From the IMG/VR virus record IMGVR_UViG_2737471818_000007: DNA of 47,226 bases. One strand, written 5' to 3'. The stretch is from a virus. Taxonomy: Duplodnaviria; Heunggongvirae; Uroviricota; Caudoviricetes. This document shows, piece by piece, positions 3,653 through 45,595 of this stretch; positions within the stretch are counted from its first letter, which is position 1, and each line of letters begins with the position of its first letter. Under the pieces are notes generated by a model. The model saw only the letters and a program-made list of their open reading frames with translations, did not search any database and was not told where the DNA came from. The translations under genes and the position numbers were made by a program.

Positions 3653-6600
3653 TCAGACCACGCTGATGCCCAGCGCCTGTTTCTTAATCACCATAACCTG
3701 CACATCGCTGGCAAACGTATCCGGCGGAATATCTGCCGAATGCCGTGTGGACGTAAGCGTGAACGTCAGGATCACGTTTCCCCGACCCGCTGGCATGTCA
3801 ACAATACGGGAGAACACCTGTACCGCCTCGTTCGCCGCGCCATCATAAATCACCGCACCGTTCATCAGTACTTTCAGATAACACATCGAATACGTTGTCC
3901 TGCCGCTGACAGTACGCTTACTTCCGCGAAACGTCAGCGGAAGCACCACTATCTGGCGATCAAAAGGATGGTCATCGGTCACGGTGACAGTACGGGTACC
4001 TGACGGCCAGTCCACACTGCTTTCACGCTGGCGCGGAAAAGCCGCGCTCGCCGCCTTTACAATGTCCCCGACGATTTTTTCCGCCCTCAGCGTACCGTTT
4101 ATCGTACAGTTTTCAGCTATCGTCACATTACTGAGCGTCCCGGAGTTCGCATTCACGTTACCGCTGATATCGGCATTTTTCGCCGTCAGCCGCCCATCCG
4201 GTGTCAGGGAAAATGCCGGAGGATTACCGCCGCTGGTAATGGTCGGAGCCGTCAGGCGTTTCAGGAACACGTCGTTCATGAATATCTGATCGCCCTGACC
4301 AACAAACATTGGTCTTGTGTTGCCATTAGACGGATCAATAAACGCGATACGGTTAGCGGCAACCAGGAACTGGCTCAGTTTGCCTTCCTCCGTGTCCTCC
4401 ATGCTGAGGCCAATACCCGCGACATAATGTTTGCCGTCTTTGGTCTGCTCAATTTTGACGCCCCACATGGCATTCCACTTATCGTTGGCGTCCTTCCACT
4501 CTTTCGAAAACTCCTCCAGTCTGCTGGCGTTATCCTCCGTCAGCTCGACTTTTTCCAGCAGCTCCTTGCCGAGATGGGATTCGGTTATCTGGCCTTTGAA
4601 AAAATCCAGGTAACCTTCCGCATCATCGCTCGCCCGACCGACGGCCTCCACGAATGCCGATTTGCCAACGGTGTTCACACTGCGGATATAAAAGTAATAA
4701 TCATGGCCCGGTTTGATATTGATACTGGCGGCTATCCAGTACAGCCCCGTGCCAAGGTAGCGGGCTGTGGTTTCAACCTGCCTGATATCGGTAATCCGCG
4801 TTTCGGAGAACCAGAACTCAAACTGTACCGTCGGATCGTAAACCGCAAGATGCGGCGTGGCGGTTATCTGAAAATAGCCCGGCATCAGCTCAATCCGAGA
4901 CGGCGCTGCCGGTGCGGCAATCCGGAACGATACCGATGCCGGATCGCCCTGCTGTCCCCACGCATTTACCGCCCGGACTGTCAGCCTGTAGTTCCCCAGC
5001 GCCAGTTGCCTGAAGCGGTATGTGGTTTCCGTCGTCCGGGCCGTGCTGACCAGCCGCTCACTGCCGTCGTCCGCTGTTACGGTCAGGCGAAGCAGGAAGC
5101 TCACCCCCTTCACCACCTTCGGTGTGTCCCAGCGCGCCAGCACCTGATATTCCCCGCTGTCTGCGGTGACTTCTGCGGTCAGGTGCTGCACCGCTGGCGG
5201 CGTGACACCATTTACCGTGCCGCTCTGGTCGCCGTCAAAGTGCGCCCCGTTATCCACGATGGCCTCTTTTTCCGGTACATGCTGCACGGCGGTGATGGCA
5301 TACGTGCCGTCGTCGTTCTCACGGATACTCACGCAGCGGAACAGGCGCTGGCGCAACGTCGGCAGCTTCAGCCCCCATACGCTGTATTCAGCAACGCCGT
5401 CAGGAACACGGCTCACTTTCACCTTCACGCCGTCGGTGACGGACTGAACCTCCACGCTGACCGGACTCCCCTGCCCGTCAACCAGGCTTATCAGCGTGGT
5501 GCCGGAAGATGGCAGCGTGATTTCACGGTCGAGCGTCAGCGTCCGGGTCTGGCTGTTTACCGCCAGCACGCGCCCGCCGGTGCGGATACCGGCATAGTCA
5601 TCATCGCAGATTTCAATGACATCGCCCGGTACATGGCGAAGCCCTTCGGCACCCACGCTGAAGTCCACGGTCTGCGTTTCCAGCAGTTCTGTTTTAATCA
5701 GCCACAGCCCGGCGCGGTGTGCCTGCCCCCGGCTGGTACAGCCAAAGGCATCCATCTTCGTAACATTACGACCGTAACGGGCAATGGCCTGCGTATCTTC
5801 AACAAGCTCTGTCGCCGTCTCCCAGCCGTTATTCGGGTCAATCCAGTTCACCTCAACGGCATTATGGCGGTCCTTCAGGGCGCTGAAGCTGTAGCGGAAC
5901 GGCGCGCCATCATCCGGCATCACCACATTACTGCGGTTATAGGTCCACGCCTTATCCGACGGTCGGTCCTGCACGAACGTCAGCGTCTGCCCGTTCCATA
6001 CCGGCATACAGCGCATCGCCGAGCAGAAATCGCTGAGCACATCCCACGCCTTACGCTGTGTGGTCAGGTACGCATTACAGGTGATGCGCGGCTCCGTGCC
6101 GCCAAAGCCGTCCGGCACTGACTGGTCGCAGTACTGGCCGATGACATACAGCGCCCATTTATCCACATCCGCCGCACCAAGACGTTTCCCCATGCCGTAG
6201 CGCGGATGGGTCAGCATATCCCACAGACACCAGGCCATGTTATTGCTGTATGCTGGTTTAAACGTTCCGTCCCAGATACCGCTGTATTGCCGCGTCTGCG
6301 GGTTATAGTTCGACGGCACCTGCAGAATGCGCCCGCGAAGATGATAATTACGACTCACCTGCTGGCTGCCGAACTGCTCCGAGTCCACCTGTACACCGAC
6401 CAGTGCCGTGTTCGGGTAGCCCTGTTTCACATCGATGATTTCGGTGTATGACGACCAGAGCGTTTTGTTCTGCAGCTGGTCTGTAGTGCTGTCCGGCGTC
6501 ATTCTGCGCATCCGGATATTAAACGGGCGCGGCGGCAGGTTACCCACCACCACCGAGGCCAGATACTGCGAGGTGGTTTTGCCCTTAATGGTGATGTCTT

Positions 6601-7051
6601 TTTCCGTCACCCAGCCACCATTACGCTGTATCTGAACCAGCAGACGGACTTCCGACGGATTCCTGTCACCCTTTGAGGTGGTTTCCACCAGTGCCTGCAC
6701 ACCGAAGGTAAAGCGCAGACGGTCGATGTTTGCAGACGTGATGGTCCGGGTAATCGGCGTGTCGTACTTCACTTCCGTACCCAGCACCGTCTCGGAGCCG
6801 GAGGATTCAAATCCCTCCGGCGGTGTCTGCTCCTGCTCACCTGCCCGGAACACCACCGTGACGCCGGATATATTGGTATTCCCCTCACTGTCCAGCACCG
6901 GCGTACTGTTCAGCAGCACGCTTTTTAATCCATCCACCGGACCTTCAATCGGCCCTTCACTGATCGCATCAATCACGCTCAGTAACTGCGTGGATTTCAG
7001 GTTATCTTTCGCTTCGCGAGGAGTGTGCCCCTTGCTGCCACCTTTACCCAT
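3653..7051 (-). CDS. J: host specificity protein J (central tail fibre)
   Basis: 1132-aa ORF, ATG at 7049-7051; sequence is collinear with lambda gpJ throughout (recalled). Confidence 0.95.
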
Positions 7052-7111
7052 TTATCTGGCTCCATTAACAACAAAACCGCCCGCAGGCGGTTTCACATAA
7101 AACGTTTTACA

Positions 7112-9445: not shown

Positions 9446-12400
9446 CGGTATACTCCGCTTAACTGCCCGCCATCACGGGACTGTTGTTGCATAAAATCTT
9501 CTGCAGCCCTTTTCCCCAGGTTGTAAACCGCCTGCATGACTTCCGGCCCAATCTGTCCGTTCTGGCCATCATTATTGATCTCGATGTTGTACTGCGGCGC
9601 AAACATCACCATCCCCGAACCACAGGTCGCTGCCACAACACCCAGCTTACCGTCAGCCCCCCTGCGCAAGGGCAGGATAGCCTCAGGCCCCGCTTCACCC
9701 ATCACCCCCGCGCCTTTTGCAAAAGCAAAAAACGTCGGACGGTTAACCACCGTGCCACTGTAGCGACTCAAATCAGCAGACTGATAAACACCACCTTCTG
9801 CATTGGTTTTCACATCACCGAAATCAAACCCCATCACACTGCCAATCCCTTTGACAGCCTTCATCATGGTTGCCTGCGCCAGAATTTTTGCCATATCTGA
9901 CAGCACAGATGAGGTGAAAGATTTGAAATTGAGTTTGCCGGTGGTAACAAAAGTTGCCAGACCATTTCCCATACTACTGAAAGCAGACATAAACATCTGT
10001 TCTGCAGTCCCGGCAGCATTATCCGCGTCGGCAGTAAAATTCATGAACGCGCGTTTTGTACCGTTTCTCCACTCCCCCTGCGCAGCATCCATCTGTTGCC
10101 AGTAGCGGCGATTCTCATTCAGTTTCCGGTTCAGACTGTCTGTCAGCGTCTGTTCAGCCTTCCGGTATGCGTCAGAACCATACGAGCCTTTCTGCTTACT
10201 GTCCCGTTCAAGTTGCTCCAGCTGTTGCTGGTACTGCTGTCGTAGACGCAACTGCGACTGGTACCGCTGCCGTTGCTGATCGCCCATTCCTGCCATGGCA
10301 ACGTCCAGATCGTGTTGCTGACGCTGTGCGCGCTCTTCCTCAGCCAGTTGACTGGTCAGCTGAATGGTCTTTTTCTTCAGGTCATTGAGGGCAGTCTGCT
10401 TCTGCAGCTCCTGCTGTTTTGCATCCAGCAGCGTCAGTGCCTGAATCAGCTCATCCTTGTGAGCCAGTACACTTTTTTCATCTGCTGTCAGTTTTTTACC
10501 GGCTAAATCGCTGATACGCTGCTGAAGGGCCAGAAGCTGTTTATGCGCTTCTGTCATCCTTTCAGTAGCCATGCCCGCTGACTGTCTGGCGGCGGCAATC
10601 TGTCCCTCCACCTGCGCCTGTTGCTGGCTGTACTGCAGTAATAGCCGGGTGGCCTCATCATTACGGGTGGCAGGCGTTTTTTTCTTAATGGCTTTTTCGT
10701 AACGTTCATTTTCACGCTGTATCGCTGCGTCCCTGACCGCCTGATCGGCGTACTGCATGGCATTAATACGCGCAATTTCACGCTGATGTCGTGCTGCTTC
10801 CGTTTCGTTCATCCGGTTCAGCGCGGCATTTTCAGCATTCCGGCGTTTCTGCTGCTCCTGATAATTTCGCTCAGCCTGCTCTTTTGCATCCTGCAAATCC
10901 TGCTGGCGTTTTCGCTCTTGCAGCGCATCCAGTTGTTGCTGATCGTATTCCCCCGTGGTGGACGCCTTAGTCCACGGAAATTTCTTCGCCCGCTGAATTT
11001 TTTCCTGCAGCGACGCAATCTGCGCATCAAGGGAATCTTCCCGACCAATGTTCATGGCCGCATCCCAGAACTGCTTCCACCAGTCAGACAAGGTTTGCAG
11101 CGTACTGCCCAGCGCATTGAGGTTATTATCAATATCCGACGTACGTTTACCGGTTTCCTCTGCCAGTGCAGACATGGCTATCCGGGCTGCGTCACTGGTG
11201 CGCCCCTGCTCTCCGAGCACACGGATCTGTTCAAGCTGGGTGGCTGTCAGAAAATGCAGTTCATCATCCAGCGCCTTCGCAGCACTGACCGGATCATCCT
11301 TCAGCCGTTTAAACTGACTGATGGTGTCACTGACAGACTGCCCTACCGAGCGTTCCATCTGTGCGGCAGCTTTCGCCACCATACCAATATCGCTACCGTG
11401 AAATGCACCGCTCCCCACTACCTGCGCCAGTGACCCCGCCATGGCATGTTGCGTGATGCCATTACCGGAAAGATTTTTACTGAGCGCCCACAACTGCCCG
11501 GCTGTCACACCGGCATAGTGTCCGGTGAGCTCAAGCTGCCGGTTAAAGGCTTCGCCTTCTTCCTGCCCCTCCATCCAGGCTTTACCCAGACCAATAACCG
11601 CAGCAGTGATCCCTCCGATAACTCCCCCCACCGCCAGGCCTTTCGGAGTCATTAATTTATCAATCCAGCCGGCACGGTTAGCCAGGGTGATCCCGGAGCC
11701 ACGAAGCGCACCGAAATTACCTCGCGCCAGCTCACCAATCATGACCCCCAGCTCCCGACGGGCTGCCGCACTTTTCAGTCCCAGCGAATGTGTGGTGTTT
11801 CCGGCTTTCTCCATTTTACGGATGTACACCTCCGCGGCACTGCTGCACCCAAGTTGTGCCGCCTTTGCCCGAAGCAGTTCCGTCGTGGTCATTTTCTGGC
11901 GACTTGTCTGTTCTTTCAGCTGACGAATAAATGCGGTTTTCTGGCGGGTGGCCGTTTCCTCTGCCTGTGTCAGAACGCGGGTTTTCGCTGTCACCTCAGA
12001 AATCAGGGCCAGATAATCCTGCTGAGCAATCCCGCCACTGTTTCTGGCCTGTCGGATCTGCTGCTGAATACGCTGTAACTCCTGCAGCCCCGCACTGGCC
12101 TGTTTTACGCTGTCGATCTGACGATAAAATGCGGCAGCCATCTTATCCTGCGCCGCAGCCAGCGCAGCCGCCTGAACCTGCTCCTCCCGCATCTGACGAC
12201 TCAGGACCTCCATCCGCAGGCGCGCCCTTTCCACATCTTCCGCCAGCGAAACATGCCCCTGCGCATGCTTCACCACGGCCTGAGTCTGTATCACCGTCGC
12301 GCTGGCAGCCTGTTTCTGACTTTCCTCAAACCGTTTCATACGGGCTTCGGCCCGCTCCGCCTCCCTTGCTGTACCATTCAGCAGATTTTTTACACGCGGA

Positions 12401-12465
12401 AGCTGCTCTTTAAAATCGGCGGTATCAATGCTTAAATCAATGACAAGGTCAGCAATCTGGTCCAA
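9442..12465 (-). CDS. H: tail tape measure protein H
   Basis: 1007-aa coiled-coil-rich ORF; C-terminus (NNDGQNGQIGPEVMQAVYNLGKRAAEDF...RDGGQLSGVYR) matches the lambda gpH C-terminus; longer than lambda H (853 aa). Confidence 0.9.
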   Translation of the reverse strand: MDQIADLVIDLSIDTADFKEQLPRVKNLLNGTAREAERAEARMKRFEESQKQAASATVIQTQAVVKHAQGHVSLAEDVERARLRMEVLSRQMREEQVQAAALAAAQDKMAAAFYRQIDSVKQASAGLQELQRIQQQIRQARNSGGIAQQDYLALISEVTAKTRVLTQAEETATRQKTAFIRQLKEQTSRQKMTTTELLRAKAAQLGCSSAAEVYIRKMEKAGNTTHSLGLKSAAARRELGVMIGELARGNFGALRGSGITLANRAGWIDKLMTPKGLAVGGVIGGITAAVIGLGKAWMEGQEEGEAFNRQLELTGHYAGVTAGQLWALSKNLSGNGITQHAMAGSLAQVVGSGAFHGSDIGMVAKAAAQMERSVGQSVSDTISQFKRLKDDPVSAAKALDDELHFLTATQLEQIRVLGEQGRTSDAARIAMSALAEETGKRTSDIDNNLNALGSTLQTLSDWWKQFWDAAMNIGREDSLDAQIASLQEKIQRAKKFPWTKASTTGEYDQQQLDALQERKRQQDLQDAKEQAERNYQEQQKRRNAENAALNRMNETEAARHQREIARINAMQYADQAVRDAAIQRENERYEKAIKKKTPATRNDEATRLLLQYSQQQAQVEGQIAAARQSAGMATERMTEAHKQLLALQQRISDLAGKKLTADEKSVLAHKDELIQALTLLDAKQQELQKQTALNDLKKKTIQLTSQLAEEERAQRQQHDLDVAMAGMGDQQRQRYQSQLRLRQQYQQQLEQLERDSKQKGSYGSDAYRKAEQTLTDSLNRKLNENRRYWQQMDAAQGEWRNGTKRAFMNFTADADNAAGTAEQMFMSAFSSMGNGLATFVTTGKLNFKSFTSSVLSDMAKILAQATMMKAVKGIGSVMGFDFGDVKTNAEGGVYQSADLSRYSGTVVNRPTFFAFAKGAGVMGEAGPEAILPLRRGADGKLGVVAATCGSGMVMFAPQYNIEINNDGQNGQIGPEVMQAVYNLGKRAAEDFMQQQSRDGGQLSGVYR

Positions 12466-12763
12466 ATCTCATTCCTCCCGATATACCTTCCCCCAGATGC
12501 ATCAGCTCTTCATCCGTGCGTTCAGGGATCACCCTGTCATCCGTAACCAGACTGAAATCATCCGCCGGAATACGTTCACCGGACACCATCTGAACCATCA
12601 GCGACTTCAGTGTGGAAATCTGTGCATCCAGCCAGATATCCCCGAAACTCTGCTTCCGGAAGAAATCCCCCCATTCGCCCAGTTCTGACGCTGACATTTC
12701 TGATAACATCCGCCGCCAGTCTGCCCGCCGGAACTCACGGGCAAGCTGCATCACAAACTGCAT
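12449..12763 (-). CDS. T: tail assembly chaperone T segment (expressed as a G-T fusion by -1 frameshift)
   Basis: ORF in the -1 frame relative to G, open from the end of G (upstream codons DTGKVLTRE then MQFVMQLA...); lambda G-T arrangement; probably no independent start. Confidence 0.75.
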   Translation of the reverse strand: MQFVMQLAREFRRADWRRMLSEMSASELGEWGDFFRKQSFGDIWLDAQISTLKSLMVQMVSGERIPADDFSLVTDDRVIPERTDEELMHLGEGISGGMRFGPDC

Positions 12764-12771
12764 CTCCCGCG

Positions 12772-13161
12772 TCAGGACTTTTCCGGTGTCAGGGGAACCT
12801 GTTCACCGTTCTGAACATCACCGGTGGAGACCGGCATACCACTCAGGGATAAAACCAGACTGCCCCCGTCGCCAAGCGCGTCATAAGACCAGGTGTTTTT
12901 TACATCCTCATTCAGCGCATCCACATCCTGTGACGGGTCCGTATTCCACATTGACCGGGAAACCAGCCAGGCATTGATATCCATCCCCATACGCAGAAAT
13001 TCAATCTGACGATCCGCCACCGGCATGGCATCATCCAGGGCGTCAAACTCAGCTGTCCGTTTCTGGACAAACGCCAGATACTCCACCCGCTGAAGTCCGG
13101 ATAATTCTGTCAGTACCACAGACTGATTACCGTAGTTAAATGTGTCCTGTTTCAGAAACAT
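12772..13161 (-). CDS. G: tail assembly chaperone G
   Basis: Track ORF 12772..13191 trimmed to the ATG at 13161 (MFLKQDTFNYGNQ...) preceded by GGAGGGG; resembles lambda gpG. Confidence 0.85.
   Translation of the reverse strand: MFLKQDTFNYGNQSVVLTELSGLQRVEYLAFVQKRTAEFDALDDAMPVADRQIEFLRMGMDINAWLVSRSMWNTDPSQDVDALNEDVKNTWSYDALGDGGSLVLSLSGMPVSTGDVQNGEQVPLTPEKS
12778..12784 (-). other. putative -1 programmed frameshift slip site (GGAAAAG) for G-T fusion
   Basis: mRNA reads ACA CCG GAA AAG TCC TGA in the G frame; a -1 slip at G GAA AAG enters the T frame three codons before the G stop; lambda uses G GGA AAG at the same place. Confidence 0.55.
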
Positions 13162-13217
13162 GTCCCCTCCGTAAACAAAAAACCCCGGCATACCGGGGTA
13201 AAAAACAGACTGCCAGG

Positions 13218-13958
13218 TTAATCACCATTAACGGTAACACCGGCCACAGCAACCTGCGCACCACCCGCAGTCATCCCCACAATCGAGGTGCTGCCCGCTT
13301 TCACACCTTTCACCGTGGCCACCATGCCACTCAGCGTAACCGTGGCGATATCAGGAGATGATGACGCCACGCTCACCGTTTTATCAGAAGCATCTTCCGG
13401 TACTGTGCTGAATGTCAGCGTCGTCGTTGCCCCCACTCTGACACTGGCGGAAACCGGCATTACTGTCAGCCCGGTCACCCCCACAATTTCAGTCCCCTCC
13501 TCAGCCAGATACGGACGCCCCACACCGCTGATTTTAACCGTACGGGTCATCACATCTTTTGACGTAATGGTTTTACCCAGCGAACTCAGCCAGCCGCGGA
13601 ACACATCAACGGTACCGTTAGGGTATTTAATGCGGAATGCACGAACTTCACCGGAATCAAACAACTGAATCAGTTTTTTCTGTCCGCTGTCACCCGGACG
13701 CCAGGCCAGCGTCGCGGATGTATCACCAACAGATTTTTGCCCCTGAGTTGTCGTTTTCCAGTCAGCATTTTCATCATCGAGATAATCGTCATCTTCCGCA
13801 TCTGCAGTCATTTCCCCCGGCTGCAGATCCTTCACCATCGCGAGGCGCAGCCAGTCCGTATCTGACAAAGGATTCGCAAATGCGTCGCCCTTGCCGGTAT
13901 ACATCCAGAACGTCGTCCCCGCCCCTTTCATTTTTTCAAGTGGATTCGGTGTCGTCAT
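13218..13958 (-). CDS. V: major tail protein V (with C-terminal Ig-like domain)
   Basis: Track ORF trimmed to the ATG at 13958 (MTTPNPLEKMKGAGTTFWMY, cf. lambda V [20 protein letters not shown]). Confidence 0.92.
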   Translation of the reverse strand: MTTPNPLEKMKGAGTTFWMYTGKGDAFANPLSDTDWLRLAMVKDLQPGEMTADAEDDDYLDDENADWKTTTQGQKSVGDTSATLAWRPGDSGQKKLIQLFDSGEVRAFRIKYPNGTVDVFRGWLSSLGKTITSKDVMTRTVKISGVGRPYLAEEGTEIVGVTGLTVMPVSASVRVGATTTLTFSTVPEDASDKTVSVASSSPDIATVTLSGMVATVKGVKAGSTSIVGMTAGGAQVAVAGVTVNGD

Positions 13959-15762: not shown

Positions 15763-16791
15763 TTATTTCACCTGAACTACCACAAACGCGTCCGGATCCG
15801 GCAACACCATCAACGGCGCAGACTGCGTCATGGTATATTCGCACCCCGGGTCCCCCACCTCTAACCAGTGTTTCGGATAACGAATTGCAGAGGTGATCCC
15901 TTCACTCAGCGCCTGGTTATCCTGGATTGCGCCATAACAACGGACACCCTCCACCTGAGTGTTTCCAAGAATCAGTGTGCCTTCCGGCAGATAACGCTGC
16001 TCATCCCCGTTTTCATCAACATACGTTGTTTTCGCCACCATGATGGCCAGATCACCGTAATAACCTTTAAAAGAAACCACGGAACCCAGATCTTTCAGCG
16101 CGGTTTCCAGTTCAGATTTTGAGCCACGGCGGGTATCCAGTTTTTCACGAAACAGCTTAAAACCGTTCAGCATACGCCAGACAGTACCGTCCATAATCGC
16201 AATATTGATGGTACCGGAAGCAAAATCGCAGTACGCATCCAGATCATGCGTCGGATCAAAGGTGTCAGCATTCTGTTTTGACCATTCGCGTCCCCCTGCC
16301 TGCGTAATGTTATTGGCGGCAGAACGACCAAAATCCACTTCCACCGTCTCAAACTGTTCACCGCTCATGGTGTACTTACCCTGCAGAACAGCGCTGACCG
16401 CCTGCATTTCTTCCACCTGCACAATCGCTTGCTCTTCCTGTTTCAGGTTGTCAGTCAGAATACGCAGGCGACGGTAGGCCGGGTCATTAAGACGGGCCGG
16501 ATCTTCCCCCGGAAGACGCTCCACCGCCTGCTGATAATCCAGCCGGTGTTTTGGTTTAACATAGCCGGGGCGTAACACGCGGGTTTCACCACCACGACTG
16601 CGCAGTACCTTACCTGACACAACCGGAGACACATATGCCGCAACCGGTGTTTTTCCGGTGATTTTATCCAGCATCACTTCCTGAGTATGGAAAGTGACCG
16701 TACGACGAAAAAACAGCTCCAGAAACAGCGCACGGAATTTCACTTTCTGCTCGGTGTAGCCGAGCAACTGACGCGTGGTAAATAACCCCAT
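15763..16791 (-). CDS. E: major capsid protein E
   Basis: Track ORF trimmed to the ATG at 16791 (MGLFTTRQLLGYTEQKVKF.., cf. lambda E MSMYTTAQLLAANEQKFKF); collinear with lambda gpE. Confidence 0.93.
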   Translation of the reverse strand: MGLFTTRQLLGYTEQKVKFRALFLELFFRRTVTFHTQEVMLDKITGKTPVAAYVSPVVSGKVLRSRGGETRVLRPGYVKPKHRLDYQQAVERLPGEDPARLNDPAYRRLRILTDNLKQEEQAIVQVEEMQAVSAVLQGKYTMSGEQFETVEVDFGRSAANNITQAGGREWSKQNADTFDPTHDLDAYCDFASGTINIAIMDGTVWRMLNGFKLFREKLDTRRGSKSELETALKDLGSVVSFKGYYGDLAIMVAKTTYVDENGDEQRYLPEGTLILGNTQVEGVRCYGAIQDNQALSEGITSAIRYPKHWLEVGDPGCEYTMTQSAPLMVLPDPDAFVVVQVK

Positions 16792-16860
16792 AATTGACTT
16801 TCCTTTAAAAACACAAACGGGCCGCATCACGACCCGTTTTTTCAGTTAATCACTTCACCA

Positions 16861-17196
16861 TCAGGCGTGGCTGATGGCACTTCCCACAAACGCGTTGGCT
16901 TTTTTCACCGCATCCACCGAATCCGGCCAGACCAGCGATTCGGTGGCAAACGTACCGCTTTTGTAGTACGTCAGTGTGGGCTCGGTCCCGGCCAGCGCCA
17001 GTACCAGCACCCCCACAGCCGTTCCGGCTTTCTGACCATCCCATGCCACCAGTTTTCCGCTGGCGTCATCCAGCATCAGTGGCGTCAGTGAAGGCGTGGC
17101 AACACTGATACCACTGGTACCTGTTGCGGTATATACCGGATCGCTTCCGGCAAAAATGCGCCCGTCCGCGCGCTTTTCTGTGGTGGTTTTAATCAT
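16861..17196 (-). CDS. D: head decoration protein D
   Basis: Track ORF trimmed to the ATG at 17196, preceded by CAGGAGA; conserved TPLMLD..KLVAWDG..YKSGTF motifs of lambda gpD. Confidence 0.88.
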   Translation of the reverse strand: MIKTTTEKRADGRIFAGSDPVYTATGTSGISVATPSLTPLMLDDASGKLVAWDGQKAGTAVGVLVLALAGTEPTLTYYKSGTFATESLVWPDSVDAVKKANAFVGSAISHA

Positions 17197-17236
17197 TTTC
17201 TCAGTCTCCTGATTTATCTGAATCACGGATCCCCGC

Positions 17237-18853
17237 TTACGGCATACTCATCAGCAGTTCTTCTTCCCCGTTCCCGGCAGTTCCGCCACCGGAAACGGCA
17301 CTGGCGGCATGCTGTGCCATGAAGCGCTCAAAAAGTGTTACCTGTGACGGTTGCGATACTGATGGCGCAGCTGCCAGCAGCGTTTTCGCCTGCTCCACTG
17401 TCATTCCAGGTTGTTCAGCCAGCGCCTGTGCCAGTTTTTCGCGTCCTTTTGCTTCCGGCAACGCAATAATTTGATCGCCGGTACTTGCCGTACCGGTTGC
17501 CGGTGCCGCTGCCAGTAGCATTTTCGCCTGTTCCACCGTCATTCCCGGCTGTTCAGCCAGCGCCTGTGCGAGTTGTTCACGCCCTTTTGCTTCCGGAAGT
17601 ACCATAATCTGCTCGCCGGTACTTGCCGCACCGGCAACCGGTGCCGCTGCCAGTAACGTTTTCGCCTGCTCCACCGTCATTCCCGGCTGTTCAGCCAGCG
17701 TCCGTGCCAGTTGTTCACGTCCTTTTGCTTCCGGAAGTGCCACAATCTGATCGCCTGTGCTGTCAGTACCGGCAACCGGTGCTGCCGCCAGTAATGTTTT
17801 TGCCTGCTCAACTGACATTCCCTGCTGACCTGCCAGCATCTGCGCCAGTTTTTCGCGTCCTTTCGCCTCCTGACAATTCAGGATCCCCATCACGCGCTGA
17901 TTTTCCTGGGACACCGCTTCAGCAACGGTGAGATTTTTTGTTGTCATCGTATTCTCCTGTGTAACAGAGTCGTTCAGAGCAGAAACCATTACATCAACGG
18001 CATCTGCAGCATTAATCAGTTGATCAGCCAGGCCTGTATCAATGCCTGCCTGGCCGTCATAAACGGCAGCCTCGGTATTCATCACCACCTCTGAACTCAG
18101 CCCCGTATAAAGTGCCACCTTGTCGACAAACATCCGGCGGGCCTCATCAATACGGCGCTGAAAATCCGCACGCACACCTGTCGGCAACGCCTGAATACTG
18201 TTGCCGTCAACCTTGTGCTGCCCGGAGTAAATCAGCGTGATATCCACGCCTTCCTGTGCCAGTTGTTTCTCGTAACTGGTGTGCGCCATCATCACACCAA
18301 TCGAACCAATTTTTGCCGTCTGCGTGACCAGCCGACGCGTACAGGCCGCCGCCAGCAACATGGCGGCTGAACAGGCCATGTCATTACACAGCGCCCACAC
18401 GGGCTTCTGTTCCCGCAGACGGTAAATCATGTCAGCACAGTCAAACGCCCCGGCAGCCTGACCGCCCGGACTGTCGATATCCAGTAAAATGCCGCGTACA
18501 TCCGGGTCGTTCACCGCTGACTTAAGACGGGCAGTCAGACCGTCATAACCGGTCATACCGGAATATGGCCGCAGGGTACCCATTTTATGTACCAACGTGC
18601 CGCTCACCGGCAGAATGGCAATACCATTTTTCACCTGGTAACTCTTTACCGGACGCGGACCACCAGTCATATAATCGGTAACCGCCAGCTGCATACCATC
18701 GGCATCAAGCTGAACGGCCTGCTGCGGAACGGCAAGGTTGCCCGCCCCCATCTCCTTACCCAGTGCGCAAAAGAAAACCCGCGCATAGGCGGGTTCCAGT
18801 AAAAGCGGCTCATTAAATGCCATCGCGGCAATATGTGATAAATTACAGCGCAT
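17237..18853 (-). CDS. C: head maturation protease C (S49/ClpP-like) with scaffold (Nu3-like) C-terminal region
   Basis: 538-aa ORF; N-terminus and protease core are collinear with lambda gpC; C-terminal region carries four tandem copies of a ~46-aa unit; start overlaps the B stop. Confidence 0.9.
   Translation of the reverse strand: MRCNLSHIAAMAFNEPLLLEPAYARVFFCALGKEMGAGNLAVPQQAVQLDADGMQLAVTDYMTGGPRPVKSYQVKNGIAILPVSGTLVHKMGTLRPYSGMTGYDGLTARLKSAVNDPDVRGILLDIDSPGGQAAGAFDCADMIYRLREQKPVWALCNDMACSAAMLLAAACTRRLVTQTAKIGSIGVMMAHTSYEKQLAQEGVDITLIYSGQHKVDGNSIQALPTGVRADFQRRIDEARRMFVDKVALYTGLSSEVVMNTEAAVYDGQAGIDTGLADQLINAADAVDVMVSALNDSVTQENTMTTKNLTVAEAVSQENQRVMGILNCQEAKGREKLAQMLAGQQGMSVEQAKTLLAAAPVAGTDSTGDQIVALPEAKGREQLARTLAEQPGMTVEQAKTLLAAAPVAGAASTGEQIMVLPEAKGREQLAQALAEQPGMTVEQAKMLLAAAPATGTASTGDQIIALPEAKGREKLAQALAEQPGMTVEQAKTLLAAAPSVSQPSQVTLFERFMAQHAASAVSGGGTAGNGEEELLMSMP
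17360..17875 (-). repeat. four in-frame tandem repeats (~138 nt each) inside gene C
   Basis: Peptide unit LPEAKGREQLAxxLAEQPGMTVEQAKTLLAAAPxxGxxSTGxQIx repeated four times (residues ~327-498); the nucleotide repeats are visible by eye. Confidence 0.85.
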
Positions 18854-20414
18854 CGCCTTTTTCTCCCGTTGTCTGTCGGATCTGCTGTTGAAACGCGTCC
18901 TTTATCCAGACCGGACGCGGAAGACCGGCAGCCTGTCGCTCCTGAGTTTCCCGTAGCTGCTGGCGGAAAATCTCCTGATAGTCATCCCCCATCAGGGCCA
19001 GCTCTTTCTCGTATGTACTCAGGCCGCCTTCAATGCGCATCACCGCTTCCTGCACTTCCTTAAGGCCATCAATCGCCATACGACCGGCACCAATCCACTC
19101 GGCACGGCACCACCCGGAACGGGCCTCCCAGAATGAGAAACGGGATTTCGGCGGACGGATCACACCACGAATAAGGGCTTCCTCCAGCCAGCAGGCAAAC
19201 ATCTGTGACGCCAGGCGACTGGCCACAAATTTTCGTTTTCCCATAAAATACCGCCACGACTCATTGGCGGATGCCCTGGCACTGGAATAACTGACCTGTG
19301 AATAATCCCGGGAAAGCTGCTCATACGACACACCCAGTCCGGCAGCAATGTAACGTAACAGCGCCTTTTCCAGTTCAGAAAAACCATTATCCGCATTCTG
19401 GGCTGTCTGCAGATTCAGTGAATCTCCCGGGTAAAGATGCGGAATACGGACCCCGCCCAGTTTTACCGTATTGGTGGCGTAATAACGCGCGTAGCCTTTC
19501 ATGATGGTGTTCAGGGGATTTTTACCTCCATCTCCCACCCCGGCGATATATTCAAACGCTTTTTCCGAATCCAGTGTGGATTCAATCGTGGCGGCATACA
19601 TGGCGCGAACCACCGCCGACTGCAGTTGCGTGGCCTGCAGTGTGTCGAGCATCTTGAGACGCTCCATTACAGAATAAAACTGGTTGGCCCCGCGGGTCTG
19701 CCCGTCTTCCTGTGGCTGAAACACATGGATCATTCCCGGTCGTCCGGAAGGCAGTGTTGCCGTAATTCGTGTCCATTTACTGACACCGTAGCCGGGCCAG
19801 TCATCATCCTGAACATGGTAGGCCAGCGCTTTTCCGTGTCGGTTTATTTCCACCCCGGCACGCATAAAACGATCGCCGGTACCATAACCGGGTGTACTGA
19901 CACGCTTCGGGCTGATGGTTTTGAATTTCGTCCGGAATAATGACGTGGATTCCGCATCCCATACGGGCTGGACAAAAATTTCACCGTTAAACGTATGGAC
20001 CCCCACCCCTTCACGAATAAATTCGGTAAACGAACGACGCCCTTCCACATCCATCGTACCAAACACCGGATCGCAGTATTCCATCCACGCCGCCTCAACA
20101 TCTTCAATAAAAGCATGTGAATCTGCTTCCGACATCCCCAGCCAGCGCCAGTTGGGACGGTAACTCAGACGAAACATGTGCCCGACAATATGATCCTTAT
20201 GAATTTCCACTGCATTCGATGCAATACCGTTGTTACGGACCAGCTCATCCGCGCGGGCGTTACCCAGATGAATGGAAGGTAAGAGCGCCACGTCGGCACT
20301 TTCCGGTGCAGGCAGCCATTCTGCCATTTGCCCACCGAACCCGGAACCACCACCAGAATATCCCATGCTTTGCCGTAAAGGCTGCCCATGAATATCCACC
20401 AGTTCCCCGTTCAC
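18843..20414 (-). CDS. B: portal protein B
   Basis: 523-aa ORF collinear with lambda gpB (GGGSGFGG.., RGANQFYSVMERLKMLDTLQ..); track start is a GTG at 20414, so the true start is uncertain. Confidence 0.9.
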   Translation of the reverse strand: MNGELVDIHGQPLRQSMGYSGGGSGFGGQMAEWLPAPESADVALLPSIHLGNARADELVRNNGIASNAVEIHKDHIVGHMFRLSYRPNWRWLGMSEADSHAFIEDVEAAWMEYCDPVFGTMDVEGRRSFTEFIREGVGVHTFNGEIFVQPVWDAESTSLFRTKFKTISPKRVSTPGYGTGDRFMRAGVEINRHGKALAYHVQDDDWPGYGVSKWTRITATLPSGRPGMIHVFQPQEDGQTRGANQFYSVMERLKMLDTLQATQLQSAVVRAMYAATIESTLDSEKAFEYIAGVGDGGKNPLNTIMKGYARYYATNTVKLGGVRIPHLYPGDSLNLQTAQNADNGFSELEKALLRYIAAGLGVSYEQLSRDYSQVSYSSARASANESWRYFMGKRKFVASRLASQMFACWLEEALIRGVIRPPKSRFSFWEARSGWCRAEWIGAGRMAIDGLKEVQEAVMRIEGGLSTYEKELALMGDDYQEIFRQQLRETQERQAAGLPRPVWIKDAFQQQIRQTTGEKGDAL

Positions 20415-27056: not shown

Positions 27057-28106
27057 TTAACCCGCCTGCTCCATTATTTCACCAACGGTCTGTTCAAAAC
27101 GTTCTTTTTCCAGTTCCACGCCAGTCGCCCTGCGTCCCAGTGACAGTGCCGCTTTTATTGTCGCCCCCGACCCCATAAAAAAATCGGCAACCAAATCACC
27201 GGGGCGACTGCTGGCCTCAATTATCTGCCGCAACATATCGGCTGGTTTTTCACAGGGATGTTTGCCCGGATAATACTGCACGGGCTTGTGCGTCCAGACA
27301 TCCGTATACGGAACGGCAACTGATACGGAAAAATAACGCCGCAGGGATTTGTACTCCTTCAGCAGGCTGGCATATTGCCGGTTCAGTTCACTGTATGTGC
27401 TGACCAGCTGGTGGTGTGGCTTTTCCAGTTCCCCGCGTTGATGTTTTTCTGCTGCAACACGCGCAAACAACGCCTGTAATTTCAGATAATCACCTTCGTT
27501 CGGCAACTGCCACTGACTGATACCAAACCAGTGCGAAGCCATGTTTTTCTTTCCGGTGGCTTCCGCTATCTGTTTTGACGTTATTCCCAGTGATTCACGC
27601 GCATCACGAAAGTAAGAAATCAGCGGGGCCATGACGTGCTGTTTTAGCTCGCTCCCCTTTGCCGCATAGCCGTCATTTTTGGGCCGGTATGGCCCCTGAT
27701 AATGTTCTGCAAACAGAATGCGTTCTGTTGCCGGGAAATACGCCCGCAGGCTTTCCTTGTTGCATCCGTTCCAGCGTCCGGACGGCTTCGCCCAGATAAT
27801 GTGGTTCAGCACATTAAAGCGCTCACGCATCATGATTTCGATATCAGATGCCAGGCGATGACCACAGAACAGGTAGAGACTTCCGGCAGGTTTCAGTACC
27901 CGCCAGAACTGCGCCAGACACTGTTCCAGCCATTTCAGGTAATCATCGTCGCCCTTCCACTGGTTATCCCAGCCCTCGGGCTTCACTTTAAAGTATGGCG
28001 GGTCTGTGACTATCAGATCGACTGAGTTTTCCGGTAAGGTCTGGATAAATTCCAGGCAATCAGCGTTGATTAACTCACAACTGGATATTTTTACAGTATT
28101 AACCAT
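27057..28106 (-). CDS. DNA methyltransferase, beta-class N6-adenine/N4-cytosine type
   Basis: 349-aa ORF with ATG at 28106; motif IV DPPY near the N-terminus (LIVTDPPYF) and motif I FxGxG near the C-terminus (DFFMGSGAT). Confidence 0.8.
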   Translation of the reverse strand: MVNTVKISSCELINADCLEFIQTLPENSVDLIVTDPPYFKVKPEGWDNQWKGDDDYLKWLEQCLAQFWRVLKPAGSLYLFCGHRLASDIEIMMRERFNVLNHIIWAKPSGRWNGCNKESLRAYFPATERILFAEHYQGPYRPKNDGYAAKGSELKQHVMAPLISYFRDARESLGITSKQIAEATGKKNMASHWFGISQWQLPNEGDYLKLQALFARVAAEKHQRGELEKPHHQLVSTYSELNRQYASLLKEYKSLRRYFSVSVAVPYTDVWTHKPVQYYPGKHPCEKPADMLRQIIEASSRPGDLVADFFMGSGATIKAALSLGRRATGVELEKERFEQTVGEIMEQAG

Positions 28107-28713: not shown

Positions 28714-30117
28714 ATGGCTCGTAAAGATTTCACTCAGCAAATAGACATTCCAATTCAAAATATCCTCCTCGATACTGAAAATGCCAGAATCCGCGCAGGT
28801 AGAGATCAAAACAACTGCATTTCAAGGATATTGCGTAAAGAAAACCAGATGCTTGTATTGATGGAGGATATTGCAGAAAACGGACTTACAACCATGCCCA
28901 TATTGGTTATGCCTCACTCAGAAGGTAAATGGGTAGTTAAAGATGGTAATAGACGAATAACAGCTTTAAAACTATTAAATAACCCAGATAGTTGCCCGGA
29001 ACCACATTTAATTCCGAAAATAAAAAAAATAAAAGAAAAATATCATGACAACATACCTACTACTGTTGACTGTTTATCAAGTGACAATTTTGAAGCAGTA
29101 TTTAAAGAGATAATAGCAAGGCATTCTGGAGCACGTAATGGTGCTGGTCAATATGACTGGTTTGCATATATGCGAACAATTTATCTATTAAATAATGGAC
29201 ATCCAACTGATTATAAAAGAGCTGGTCAATATATGTGTTGGGCTGAACAAGAAGGCATTGATGTAGATGATGATTTCCCAATCACTAGTGTAGCCAGATT
29301 CTTTACTAGAGATAATCTTCTATTGTTAGGATTTGAAGTGGAAAATGATAAATTGAAGCCAATACTCTCAAAAGAAAAAATAATAAAAATGGCCTCAAAA
29401 ATTAATAGCGACTTTTCTTCAAAAATAGTTGATGTTAACACCGTCTTTAATCCTAGCGATGCAAAGAAATATCTTTGCTCGGTAAGAAAATATGCAGGAA
29501 TAATAGATGATTTTGCTTACAATAGTGATGACACAGAACAAGAAAATAATAAAAAAGAAGAAACAAATAAATGTTCCTCTCCATCTGAAGTGGATAACAA
29601 TAATGCGCAATCAGATAGTAAGAGTGACGCACCTGTACTACTAAAAAAACACGCAGGTAGAGGAGGTACACCTAAAAAAATACCAGCAGAGCGAAATAAA
29701 ATTTTTGGTAGAGGAAAGCCTGGAATTACTATTCCTGAAAATGAGACTAAAATAAGAACTATAATCTCAGAACTTAGGCAATTAGATGTAAAAAAAACAA
29801 CTCTTGCAACTGCATTTCTTCTTCGGGCACTGCTGGAGTTAAGTGATAAAGAATATAGAACAATTAACAAGTTGCAAGATAAAAAAAGCTTAGCTAAAAA
29901 TATTGCTAATAGCGCAGATCATATGTTGAAAAATAATCTAATCACTGACTCAGAACACCATATAATATCAGCTTATACTCGCGGCGAGCAAGGAACTGTG
30001 CACATTGAAACTTTACAAAAATTAATTCACAGAGAGACACATCACCCAGATTATATCTCAATTAATGTTTTTTGGGACAATATAGGTTGTTTTGTTCGAG
30101 CTTGTTGGAAAGATTAA
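28714..30117 (+). CDS. ParB/Srx-fold (DGxRR motif) N-terminal domain protein, unknown function; candidate nuclease or defence protein
   Basis: 467-aa ORF with ATG at 28714; N-terminus has ParB-like motifs (ILLDTENARIR; GLTTMPILVMP; VVKDGNRRITALKLL); Lys-rich low-complexity linker; His-rich C-terminal domain; very AT-rich. Confidence 0.65.
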   Translation: MARKDFTQQIDIPIQNILLDTENARIRAGRDQNNCISRILRKENQMLVLMEDIAENGLTTMPILVMPHSEGKWVVKDGNRRITALKLLNNPDSCPEPHLIPKIKKIKEKYHDNIPTTVDCLSSDNFEAVFKEIIARHSGARNGAGQYDWFAYMRTIYLLNNGHPTDYKRAGQYMCWAEQEGIDVDDDFPITSVARFFTRDNLLLLGFEVENDKLKPILSKEKIIKMASKINSDFSSKIVDVNTVFNPSDAKKYLCSVRKYAGIIDDFAYNSDDTEQENNKKEETNKCSSPSEVDNNNAQSDSKSDAPVLLKKHAGRGGTPKKIPAERNKIFGRGKPGITIPENETKIRTIISELRQLDVKKTTLATAFLLRALLELSDKEYRTINKLQDKKSLAKNIANSADHMLKNNLITDSEHHIISAYTRGEQGTVHIETLQKLIHRETHHPDYISINVFWDNIGCFVRACWKD

Positions 30118-30163: not shown

Positions 30164-31018
30164 TCATTTCTTCTTCATAGAGGGAGTGCTATGAATATTT
30201 AAATTTTTATATACCATAAGTTCTGTAACTCTTGGCCTTGTCAAATGAGTTGAGTAATGTAAAGAAAACTCCACAATTTTTTCGTCTTTATATAACTTCC
30301 TGATTTCTTCACAATTATCATATGTAACAATTATCGGAGTGGAAATATCCTTAACCTTTTCAGAAATTAATTTATGATCATGAGGTTTATAATGATTTCT
30401 ATAAAGCTGGCTACCTTTTTCATAATATGGAGGATCAAGATAAATTAGAGATTTTTTTGGTAGTGTATTTTTTATACTACCAATCAACTCACAGGCATCC
30501 AAATTATAAAGATCAATAAATTTTTTCATTCCACCTATTTTTTTTACTCTTTCACATAGTTTCTTCTTATTATACCTAGCATCAATCTTATATTTACCAC
30601 TCTGTTCTTTTCCTCCTATAACCCCACCTGATAAGATTCCAGAACGATTGGTTCGATTGAGAAAAAACGTAGCAAAACCAATAGATAAAATATCATGTTT
30701 AGTATAATTGTTTATTACATCTTTTTGCTTATACCAATTATCCATTGTTACTTCTGTTTCATTTATCAATGAAATAAATTTATCATTCTCATTTAACACT
30801 GACCACCAAAATGAGTAAACAACAGGATCCAAATCATTAATAATGACATGATCTACATATCCATGCATTAGCAAATACAATGCAGCTCCTGCGCCGCCAG
30901 CATATGGCTCCACATAATACCCACCACTAATTCCGTTATACCTCAGCAGTTCTGATATCCAAGGCCCCATCCTCCCTTTTCCACCGGGATAACGTAATGG
31001 GGTAAAAAATGTAGTCAT
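30164..31018 (-). CDS. DNA adenine methyltransferase, D12 (Dam-like) class
   Basis: Track ORF 30164..31054 trimmed to the ATG at 31018 (MTTFFTPLRYPGGKGRM..); motifs YPGGK, VEPYAGGAG, FLNRTNRSG, YLDPPYY parallel E. coli Dam; AT-rich; convergent with the ParB-like gene. Confidence 0.8.
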   Translation of the reverse strand: MTTFFTPLRYPGGKGRMGPWISELLRYNGISGGYYVEPYAGGAGAALYLLMHGYVDHVIINDLDPVVYSFWWSVLNENDKFISLINETEVTMDNWYKQKDVINNYTKHDILSIGFATFFLNRTNRSGILSGGVIGGKEQSGKYKIDARYNKKKLCERVKKIGGMKKFIDLYNLDACELIGSIKNTLPKKSLIYLDPPYYEKGSQLYRNHYKPHDHKLISEKVKDISTPIIVTYDNCEEIRKLYKDEKIVEFSLHYSTHLTRPRVTELMVYKNLNIHSTPSMKKK

Positions 31019-31105
31019 GCTGAACCTCATACAAAACCAGGAAATTAAATGCATTTTACCCTAAATCACATCAATTCTAAATAACTAAATTAACAGTATT
31101 AAAAT

Positions 31106-38084: not shown

Positions 38085-38831
38085 TTACTTCACAACCCTT
38101 AAATGGCTGACATTTGAACGCCAGCTATCCCAGTTAAAATTCACCCAGCGACCACCGTTCATGGCCATGCGGTCCATCACGCGTTCGCCAAGCAGCGTAT
38201 TCATCGCCGCATGGTTCAGATTCGTCAGCATCCCGACGCTGTGCATCGAGGCCGTTCTGCGATCGAATATCTGGTTCAGTGTGACCTGTTCGTTACGCGT
38301 ATCCCGCTGCATACCGATTTCATCCAGGATAAGCAGGTCAACTTCACACAACCCCTGCAAAAATTTTTCGCCTGAGTTTTTGTTGTCGTAGTTGCCGTGC
38401 AACGCCAGCATCACATCCGCCACCGTCACAACAATCACGCTGCGACCTTTCGCCAGAAGATGGTTACCAATGGCTGCTGCCAGATGATTCTTTCCGGTAC
38501 CAGGCTTACCGCTGAACACAAAATTCGTGCACCCGCTCATCAGTTCGTCTGCAATGGACTTCGCCTGGCTGAGTGCATGACGCTGTCCGTCGTTCTGCAT
38601 CTGGTAATTCGCAAACGAACATTTCTGGTGCAACGGCTGAATACCGGAACGATTCAGGAATTTTTCCACCCGCAACTGGCGATTCTGGCGGTTAATCTCC
38701 TCGCTACGTTTTCGCTCTTCTGCAAGCTGCCACTCTCTCCACTCGTCCACTGTCCGGTACCGCGCGGTTACATGCTGCGGGGCCAGCTTACGGATACGTT
38801 CAAGAACACCACCTGCCGCAATATTTTTCAT
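38085..38831 (-). CDS. DnaC-like helicase loader (IstB-type AAA+ ATPase)
   Basis: 248-aa ORF with Walker [16 protein letters not shown] and Walker B LLILDEIG; lambda P position. Confidence 0.85.
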
Positions 38832-45325: not shown

Positions 45326-45595
45326 ATGAGCGAACAGTACCTGATAACGCTCGATGAGTGGAAACCCAAACGGTTCAGTCTCCCAATAACAAACACTACC
45401 CTGGTGAAATACGGAAAACTTGGATACATCGTACCAAGACCACAAAAAATTCGTGGACGTTGGCTGATAGATCGCCGGGCAGTATTTGTTGGACCTGGTG
45501 AAACGGGAATTGCGCCGGAAATTCATACTGGCGATGATGATGCACTGAAGGAGATTTTAACTCATGTCACCGAGGCCACGAAAAAACAGCACTGA
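45326..45595 (+). CDS. excisionase-like protein
   Basis: Track ORF 45317..45595 trimmed to MSEQYLITLDEWKPKRF..; small basic protein immediately upstream of and overlapping int. Confidence 0.6.
   Translation: MSEQYLITLDEWKPKRFSLPITNTTLVKYGKLGYIVPRPQKIRGRWLIDRRAVFVGPGETGIAPEIHTGDDDALKEILTHVTEATKKQH

Follow-up and report, generated by a model that had tools for sequence, protein, structure and literature searches.

The closest described counterparts of the gene analysed here are the head protease and scaffold genes of phages lambda, 21 and N15. In lambda, the S49 protease gpC and the nested scaffold gpNu3 have a common C-terminus (NC_001416, 4418-5737 and 5132-5737), and the interactions described comprise Nu3-Nu3, Nu3-C, Nu3-E and Nu3-B (PMC3224144). 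Genes 5 and 6 of phage 21 (M81255, OL657228) are built in a like manner, with a nested scaffold start lying just upstream of a series of tandem in-frame boxes that are followed by a C-terminal tail motif. These boxes, of about 46-50 aa, are mutually homologous and lie within the nested scaffold gene; GenBank M81255 annotates them as 'Tri1 box / Tri box / Tri3 box, function unknown'. The three-box type is also found in Gifsy-1 and in many Salmonella and E. coli prophages. In N15, phi80 and HK225, gene 5 encodes the S49 protease and the nested gene 6 a 'head scaffolding protein' of about 137 aa, a much shorter scaffold that carries a single copy of the unit motif repeated in the present gene. 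The literature searched yielded no study on the function of either the Nu3 motif or these boxes, and no structure of Nu3 is known.

The window analysed here is a stretch of 47,226 nucleotides of viral DNA. Its minus-strand gene at 17237..18853 encodes a gpC-like prohead protease/scaffold protein of 538 aa, composed of an S49 peptidase domain, four repeated units and a C-terminal tail. The whole protein matches Pfam Peptidase_S49 (PF01343) over aa 146-290 (E=3e-33, 115 bits against a cutoff of 24.9) as well as phrog_53, 'head maturation protease' (E=6e-220), and is 56% identical to lambda C and 67% identical to phage 21 gp5. The SppA/ClpP-like peptidase domain (17984..18418, minus strand) matches the SppA structures 3rst and 4kwb in a phmmer search of the PDB (E of about 9e-17), the only match found in the PDB with the whole protein. 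Ser162 (codon 18368-18370) aligns with the SppA serine of the MAASGG motif and is invariant in alignments of 40 homologues. The same Pfam scan placed a Peptidase_C23 match over unit 1 (26.3 bits against a cutoff of 25); this marginal match is treated as spurious, because it covers an Ala/Leu/Gln-rich helical segment with no papain-like context.

The neighbouring genes follow the lambda order, all on the minus strand, with the portal gene (18843..20414) upstream and, downstream, a D-like gene (16861..17226) and an E-like gene (15763..16830), whose products are 54% and 59% identical to those of lambda. The RefSeq annotation of a 99.4%-identical prophage agrees with this order, and names the corresponding gene 'S49 family peptidase' between the portal and head-decoration genes. 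The first-pass annotation had assigned the gene to the C/Nu3 type of protease and scaffold genes from the sequence, and this is correct; the prophage that carries it is a lambda-like one of E. coli. The term "delta domain", which that annotation applied to the repeat region, does not fit: this name denotes the N-terminal region of the HK97 capsid protein, while the repeat lies in the protease/scaffold gene and the capsid protein is here a separate product of 342 aa (341 aa for lambda gpE) with no N-terminal extension.

Tandem Repeats Finder reports one tandem array at 17370..17870, with a period of 138 nt, 3.6 copies and 84% matches (score 659), by a wide margin the strongest tandem repeat of the window. 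When the sequence is compared with itself at different shifts, identity is 0.78 for a shift of 138 nt versus 0.27 ± 0.04 at other shifts, far beyond chance. In the protein register, the array consists of four complete in-frame units of 46 aa (138 nt) at aa 319-502, behind the S49 domain and inside the scaffold part of the protein. The earlier claim of four consecutive in-frame copies of a unit of about 46 aa is confirmed. The location first given for the array, 17360..17875, holds, but its extent is slightly wider: as units 1 to 4 map from 17899 down to 17348, the array spans 17348..17899 on the minus strand.

Unit 1 (aa 319-364, 17762..17899; QRVMGILNCQEAKGREKLAQMLAGQQGMSVEQAKTLLAAAPVAGTD) is the most diverged copy; its orthologues are the one unit of lambda and the Tri1 box of phage 21. 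It is followed by unit 2 (aa 365-410, 17624..17761; STGDQIVALPEAKGREQLARTLAEQPGMTVEQAKTLLAAAPVAGAA), by unit 3 (aa 411-456, 17486..17623; STGEQIMVLPEAKGREQLAQALAEQPGMTVEQAKMLLAAAPATGTA), which is 88% identical to unit 2 at the nucleotide level, and by unit 4 (aa 457-502, 17348..17485; STGDQIIALPEAKGREKLAQALAEQPGMTVEQAKTLLAAAPSVSQP). The remaining 36 residues (aa 503-538, 17240..17347; SQVTLFERFMAQHAASAVSGGGTAGNGEEELLMSMP) form a tail common to the protease and the predicted scaffold. Its motif, LF[DE]RFM…LLMSMP, is kept in alignments of the phage 21-type relatives, and by analogy the tail may serve as a capsid-targeting peptide.

A nested in-frame scaffold gene is predicted at 17237..17947 (minus strand), from sequence features and from the annotation of phage 21 and N15. 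Its ATG (17947-17945, Met303) is preceded, with a 6-nt spacer, by a Shine-Dalgarno-like AGGAG at 17954..17958 that is conserved in relatives, and in the alignment it coincides with the start given for gene 6 of phage 21. In 79 of 80 related loci, unit 1 is preceded at a distance of 12-14 codons by an in-frame ATG with an AGGAG/GAGG motif. The predicted product of 236 aa would begin with MTTKNL…, comprise a 16-aa leader, the four units and the 36-aa tail, and correspond to lambda Nu3 and to the product of phage 21 gene 6. In lambda, the Nu3 start lies 60-odd residues earlier, within the protease domain, and a unique 50-aa linker stands ahead of the unit; the Nu3 start methionine (aa 239 of C) is absent from the present protein in the alignment.

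Phage 21 and this prophage have in common the gene position, the S49 protease, the tandem in-frame boxes and the tail motif, and the predicted nested start here lies, as in phage 21, just ahead of the boxes. The four-unit array likewise consists of mutually homologous units of this length within the predicted nested scaffold gene. The difference is one of number: since phage 21 has three boxes and this prophage four, the array is a copy-number variant of the Tri box repeat. In addition, units 2-4 are more alike here (76-88% nucleotide identity) than the well-diverged Tri2 and Tri3 boxes of phage 21, and past the first box megablast no longer detects DNA similarity to phage 21. Lambda gpC (NC_001416) holds exactly one unit, homologous to unit 1 (…ENSRIMGILNCEEAHGREEQARVLAETPGMTVKTARRILAAAP…), as the first-pass annotation had stated. 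The exceptional status that this comparison with lambda seemed to imply is not borne out, since three copies are present in phage 21, in Gifsy-1 and in most Salmonella relatives.

The same annotation described the copies as nearly identical at the nucleotide level and took this as a sign of recent expansion. Comparison of the units gives a different picture. Pairwise nucleotide identity is 88% between units 2 and 3, 76-77% between either of these and unit 4, and 59-69% between unit 1 and the others, and the longest exact runs common to copies measure only 8-31 nt. Values of dS between copies range from 0.16 to 1.6, with dN/dS of 0.09-0.42 overall and 0.09-0.25 in the core for most unit pairs. 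Among the variable core columns, 24 fall at third codon positions of the minus-strand frame versus 7 and 8 at the other two, so that variation is about threefold more frequent at third positions than at the first or second; the amino-acid sequence is kept from copy to copy while synonymous sites are near saturation. The copies are old, and each is under purifying selection at the protein level.

This pattern also bears on the reading that the repeat works as DNA or RNA, for instance as repeated protein-binding sites or as an antisense gene. For the homologous region, one phage 21 record lists CII sites identified by pattern matching, and a 102-aa plus-strand ORF (17623..17931) overlaps the array. 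The concentration of variation at third codon positions of the minus-strand frame and the conservation of amino acids over near-saturated synonymous sites nevertheless argue for selection on the protein; the motif is, moreover, conserved as protein in distant phages with unrelated DNA, and the plus-strand ORF translates into a low-complexity Pro/Val/Ala sequence. A function at the nucleic acid level is thus extremely improbable.

The age of the array is further documented by its distribution. In 60 genomes drawn across the 96 complete E. coli genomes that match the scaffold region, the four-copy span is gap-free in all but one (59/60; 764 nt in 53), down to about 85% identity. Units are positional orthologues between relatives in 130 of 144 cases. 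Large protein clusters, with members from E. coli, E. marmotae, E. albertii, Citrobacter and Salmonella, show the 538-aa form, and four units are the commonest state among IMG/VR relatives. Searches of isolated phage genomes at the nucleotide and protein levels did not find the four-copy allele.

Copy number nevertheless varies, in whole-unit steps. Among the 120 closest proteins, 74 have three units, 40 have four, and two each have five and two; in IMG/VR loci, stop-to-stop ORFs of 462, 508, 554 and 600 codons correspond to 2, 3, 4 and 5 units, so that close relatives with 2, 3 or 5 copies differ by exact 46-codon steps. The three-copy allele of strain PapRG-04-4 arose by an exact 138-nt deletion with its junction in CCGGAAGCAAAAGG, common to units 3 and 4, and is a clean unequal-crossover deletion. 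Whole units are gained or lost through unequal homologous recombination between them, and gene conversion takes place occasionally. Because alleles of two, three and five units occur, four units are not strictly required.

A recent and unstable expansion of a single lambda-like unit, or an assembly error, could in principle account for such an array, and both the whole-unit variation among close relatives and the 88% identity of units 2 and 3, with an exact run of 31 nt sufficient for occasional recombination, are what it would lead one to expect. Against it, nucleotide differences between copies amount to 12-41% of positions, with dS as high as 1.6, the four-copy span persists gap-free in prophages only 85% identical, and the units are mostly positional orthologues across relatives, which makes this explanation highly improbable. 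Assemblers do not collapse or expand copies so diverged, and an assembly artefact is excluded by the recurrence of the identical gap-free span in dozens of independent complete genomes. The earlier suspicion of a recombination-prone repeat is correct insofar as the array is resized by recombination to 2, 3 or 5 units, but such alleles are rare compared with the four-copy one. The four-copy array is an established allele of its lineage, neither a recent expansion nor an artefact.

Outside this lineage, the unit is a widespread motif, normally present as a single copy behind S49 or ClpP prohead proteases. A profile built on it, with the consensus …IL.l.EAKGRE.LA..LA..pGMtveqAK.lLaaaP, matches 565 representative proteins; among the best 150 of these, 132 are single-copy, with the unit about 45 aa from the C-terminus. 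In distant representatives, it stands behind an S49 domain in 9 of 10 and behind a ClpP domain in the other. Across hundreds of distant phages, conservation reaches at least 90% at each of the residues I6, E11, A12, G14, R15, A19, L22, A23, A33 and L37. Pfam searches with single units return no family, and a PDB search with a 65-sequence unit profile gives no meaningful match, its only match with E<0.01 being a designed repeat protein at about 3.6 bits per domain.

The AlphaFold2 model of the full-length protein (pLDDT 62.6) was used for secondary structure only. In this model, each unit is composed of short helices in the order helix, EAKGRE, helix, loop, helix, with pLDDT values of 70-80 for the units and below 50 for the linkers. 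The unit is accordingly modelled as a 46-aa helix-loop-helix followed by a flexible Ala/Gly/Pro-rich linker of the form AAAP-x-AG-xx-S; its fold and the packing between units are uncertain, since the scaffold-only model has low confidence (mean pLDDT 42, pTM 0.19). The P22 scaffold gp8 carries a C-terminal helix-turn-helix coat-binding domain, likewise a small helix-loop-helix module near the scaffold C-terminus. The likeness is one of functional analogy only, as gp8 has one module and no linked protease, and homology between the two was rejected on an hhalign probability of 1.1%.

Taken as a whole, these observations are likely explained by an old and stable four-unit allele of a C/Nu3-type gene that gives rise to two products and whose units act as multivalent modules. 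As in lambda, phage 21 and N15, the two products would be the full-length protease and the 236-aa scaffold started at ATG 17947. Since the units and the tail are common to both, we propose that identical contacts would bring both into the procapsid as it assembles. Each unit may act as an independent module for self-association, for binding to the capsid protein or portal, or for both, and four units per chain would confer a higher valency than the one of lambda. After assembly, the S49 protease would degrade the scaffold, probably by cleavage in the Ala-rich linkers as we conjecture, and the pieces would leave the shell. A change in capsid geometry is improbable, as the capsid protein (342 aa) matches lambda gpE (341 aa) in length and is 59% identical to it.

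Alternatively, the units could be interchangeable flexible filler, providing core mass or volume or cleavable linkers with no specific binding, in which case copy number would be near-neutral. The existence of natural alleles of 1-5 units is compatible with this idea, as are the predicted disorder of the linkers and the similar lengths reached by scaffolds of different make-up (201 aa for lambda Nu3, 200 aa for phage 21 gp6 and 236 aa here). The motif core is, however, strongly conserved across hundreds of distant phages, its dN/dS of 0.09-0.25 in most pairs indicates more constraint than a spacer needs, and four copies strongly predominate within the lineage, so that a pure spacer role appears unlikely. 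Returning to units as binding modules, a more specific and doubtful, though possible, extension is that their number tunes valency, one chain engaging several capsid subunits or cross-linking scaffolds into a network or condensate-like core, with four as the selected optimum for this combination of capsid and portal.

The array is a larger version of the repeat first annotated in phage 21, and hence a known type of repeat in a common prophage gene. For annotation, the 538-aa 'S49 family peptidase' is a real protein rather than a product of mis-assembly, its gene probably hides an unannotated nested scaffold gene, and length classes 46 aa apart represent copy-number alleles. The binding partners and residues of lambda-family scaffolds are poorly defined, and the repeat marks a conserved functional core of these proteins. 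The alleles of one to five copies, in otherwise similar T=7-type head modules, form a natural series in which scaffold valency can be related to assembly; if valency is indeed tuned by unit number, this series would be a ready test system for its effect on procapsid fidelity and stoichiometry.

The array that the first-pass annotation had placed at 17360-17875 is detected by Tandem Repeats Finder at 17370..17870, with a period of 138 nt, 3.6 copies, 84% matches, and a score of 659; the program finds no second tandem repeat scoring above 70 elsewhere in the 47-kb window. It lies within a gpC-like ORF of 538 aa on the minus strand (17237..18853). In the protein register, four complete 46-aa units each carry an EAKGRE core (residues 329, 375, 421, and 467): unit 1 (aa 319-364; 17762-17899), unit 2 (aa 365-410; 17624-17761), unit 3 (aa 411-456; 17486-17623), and unit 4 (aa 457-502; 17348-17485), all encoded on the minus strand. 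Their coordinates give a full span of 17348..17899, slightly wider than first proposed for this same array, and the greater divergence of unit 1 brings the Tandem Repeats Finder total down to 3.6 copies. Shifting the array segment against itself gives an identity of 0.78 for a 138-nt offset and 0.71 for one of 276 nt, against 0.27 ± 0.04 at every other shift. Repeat detection, protein register, and self-shift identity agree that four in-frame tandem units of 138 nt are real, and the units are tandem copies of a conserved scaffold-core motif. Comparison with lambda gpC confirms a single unit in lambda; phage 21 has three and the window four.

The 538-aa protein matches phrog_53 'head maturation protease' in PHROGs (E=6e-220) and contains a Pfam Peptidase_S49 domain (aa 146-290, E=3e-33), with Ser162 aligned with the serine of the SppA MAASGG motif; the solved structures related to it are exclusively SppA signal-peptide peptidases. 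Taken alone, the repeat region has four matches each to the 'capsid assembly protein' and 'head scaffolding protein' phrogs. Identity of the 538-aa protein is 56% with lambda gpC and 67% with phage 21 gp5. A gene of the E. coli EC11 prophage, annotated 'S49 family peptidase', is 99.4% identical to that of the window, and its neighborhood, in the order terminase small and large subunits, W-like, portal, S49 gene, decoration, major capsid, FI etc., is the canonical lambda head module. The window capsid protein is 59% identical to lambda E at nearly equal length (342 vs 341 aa), and the decoration protein 54% identical to lambda D. The EC11 prophage, the closest complete-genome relative, also carries an IS3-family insertion between its lysis and terminase genes (5948..7110). 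Over unit 1 (aa 309-375, ~17729..17929), Pfam reports Peptidase_C23, the Carlavirus endopeptidase, at 26.3 bits, barely over the 25-bit gathering cutoff; the Ala/Leu/Gln-rich composition of the helical motif most likely makes this hit a false positive, which could misdirect automated annotation.

Since a lambda-type integrase, tail fibre, holin, and replication genes are also present, the window is a lambdoid prophage. A 23-bp direct repeat (39378..39461, 3.7 copies, 70% match) lies within a 339-aa ORF without Pfam match (38838..39857, minus strand), directly upstream of a DnaC/IstB-like ATPase gene (38085..38831). The lambda ori iterons are located within the O replication-initiator gene, and by analogy these repeats are probably the prophage origin. 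Two DNA methyltransferase genes (N6_N4_Mtase and Dam-like D12 class; 27057..28106 and 30164..31054, both minus strand) flank a 467-aa ORF without Pfam match on the plus strand (28714..30117), and this segment possibly represents a moron, or a defence-type insertion, within the late-regulatory region. Adjoining the integrase gene (45564..46682) is an 812-aa ORF (42826..45264, plus strand), of which the C-terminal 175 aa form an Rv2179c-like 3'-5' exoribonuclease domain (E=2e-67) and the first ~620 aa have no Pfam match.

The copies had been described as nearly identical at the nucleotide level and hence recently expanded, with an assembly artefact named as what would refute the array. Pairwise identity is 59-88%: units 2 and 3 share 122 of 138 nt (88%), unit 4 is 76-77% identical to units 2 or 3, and unit 1 is 59-69% identical to the others. 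Recent expansion is contradicted by this divergence, by the Nei-Gojobori dS of 0.16-1.6 between copies, and by the conservation of the four-copy span in relatives down to ~85% identity. Core dN/dS is 0.09-0.42 (Nei-Gojobori), and variable core columns number 24 at third codon positions vs 7 and 8 at the others. Judging from these sequence comparisons, the copies are old and protein-level selection holds each one, with every copy under purifying selection. Third-position variation together with protein-level selection rules out a DNA-level function; a DNA-level element or an antisense ORF is also contradicted by conservation of the protein where the DNA is unrelated.

An artefact is likewise contradicted by complete genomes. 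In 60 evenly spaced genomes out of the 96 complete E. coli genomes matching the scaffold region, that region is gap-free in 59, with the full 764 nt in 53 and identity from 99.6% to ~85%. The single exception, PapRG-04-4, is shorter by 138 nt through a clean in-frame loss of one unit, and its deletion junction, inside CCGGAAGCAAAAGG, a stretch common to units 3 and 4, has the form of a textbook unequal crossover. Among the best 120 relatives from a collection of 5.8 billion proteins, 74 have three units (mostly Salmonella and phage 21-type, ~497-508 aa), 40 have four (mostly 538 aa), two have five (568 and 578 aa), and two have two. The 538-aa form, some clusters of which have hundreds of members, is spread across E. 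coli, E. marmotae, E. albertii, Citrobacter, and Salmonella. Of 80 related IMG/VR loci, 44 are four-copy, most with a stop-to-stop ORF of 554 codons, and rare relatives of 508, 462, and 600 codons correspond to three, two, and five units in exact 46-codon steps. The four-copy allele is absent from a collection of 50,697 phage records, where phage 21-type phages are the best matches.

When the units of 36 distinct four-copy proteins are compared, 130 of the 144 are closest to the unit at the corresponding position in a different protein, and the remaining 14 to a different unit of their own protein. The four units therefore pass down largely together as one block, and gene conversion has acted in some cases, as exemplified by the Citrobacter proteins P0032 and P0041 with nearly identical internal units. 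Larger rearrangements are seen in the phage 21-type relatives P0044 (657 aa), P0072/P0073 (551 aa), and P0076 (449 aa): in one, a duplication running from the protease domain end to box 3 inclusive brings the total to six units, and the other two have a hybrid extra box or a box 1/2 fusion leaving two boxes. Inter-box recombination therefore reshapes the three-box lineage too. The array is resized through unequal recombination and is stable at four copies within its lineage.

In lambda, Nu3 starts in frame inside C at aa 239, a Met that the window protein lacks. The window has instead an arrangement like that of phage 21, where scaffold gene 6 has its start Met immediately 5' of the repeats and its own annotated RBS: acacAGGAGaatacgATG, with the ATG at 17947-17945. 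On good sequence evidence, this internal ATG is predicted to start a nested scaffold of 236 aa (17237..17947, minus strand), comprising a 16-aa leader, the four units (184 aa), and a 36-aa tail. Every four-copy homologue examined keeps the Met, and in 79 of the 80 related IMG/VR loci an in-frame ATG with AGGAG or GAGG ahead of it is located 12-14 codons 5' of unit 1. Whereas the annotation of phage 21 and N15 includes the nested scaffold, RefSeq/PGAP gives near-identical prophages only the 538-aa 'S49 family peptidase' (12001..13617 in EC11), without a nested ORF.

A profile of the four units matches 565 of 1.84 billion representative proteins (E<=1e-3). Among the best 150 matches, 132 have one copy, 12 two, and six three, typically ~45 residues from the C-terminus of either 400-550-aa proteases or 100-230-aa proteins of stand-alone or nested scaffold size. 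In all of ten diverse long representatives, a protease domain lies upstream (nine S49, one ClpP). The consensus of 65 diverse units is xRxxxILxLxEAKGRExLAxxLAxxPGMTVxxAKxxLAAAPxAx, with I6, E11, A12, G14, R15, A19, L22, A23, A33, and L37 each at least 90% conserved. Searches for a Pfam family or a solved homologue of the unit found none, and homology to the P22 scaffold was rejected (profile comparison probability 1.1%). In the AlphaFold2 model of the full protein, computed with a 40-sequence alignment, the units have pLDDT of 70-80 and the joining linkers below 50; each unit is predicted as a short helix, a PEAKG turn, a helix (REQLAxxL), a loop (AEQPGM), and a helix (TVEQAKTLLA). The scaffold-only model is poor (pLDDT 42). 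That the units are a neutral spacer or filler would fit the natural series of one to five copies and the small spread in total scaffold length (201, 200, and 236 aa), but is improbable given how strongly the core is conserved and how far four copies predominate.

From the paradigm of lambda, phage 21, and N15 and the published lambda interactions (Nu3-Nu3, Nu3-C, Nu3-E, and Nu3-B; PMC3224144), we infer that the units would act as independent interaction modules, each with itself, the capsid protein, or the portal as candidate partners, four per chain providing higher valency. Units and tail being common to the protease and the nested scaffold, the two would co-assemble with portal and capsid protein, and the scaffold would then be degraded by the S49 protease, conjecturally by cleavage within the Ala-rich linkers. 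Capsid geometry would be expected to stay unaltered, given a capsid protein that resembles that of lambda and matches it in length.

The repeat as a feature is not new, since the phage 21 head operon, as deposited in GenBank in the 1990s (M81255), already carries repeat_region annotations 'Tri1 box', 'Tri box', and 'Tri3 box' ('function unknown; putative'). The window array is a copy-number variant of this type known for decades, and hundreds of database entries already list its four-copy protein under the name 'S49 family peptidase'. The four-copy allele, the one-to-five copy series, and the wide distribution of the motif are not described in the literature searched, the coverage of which is incomplete. 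Taken together, the array is a well-explained feature rather than an anomaly, and offers a modest experimental opportunity on scaffold valency.
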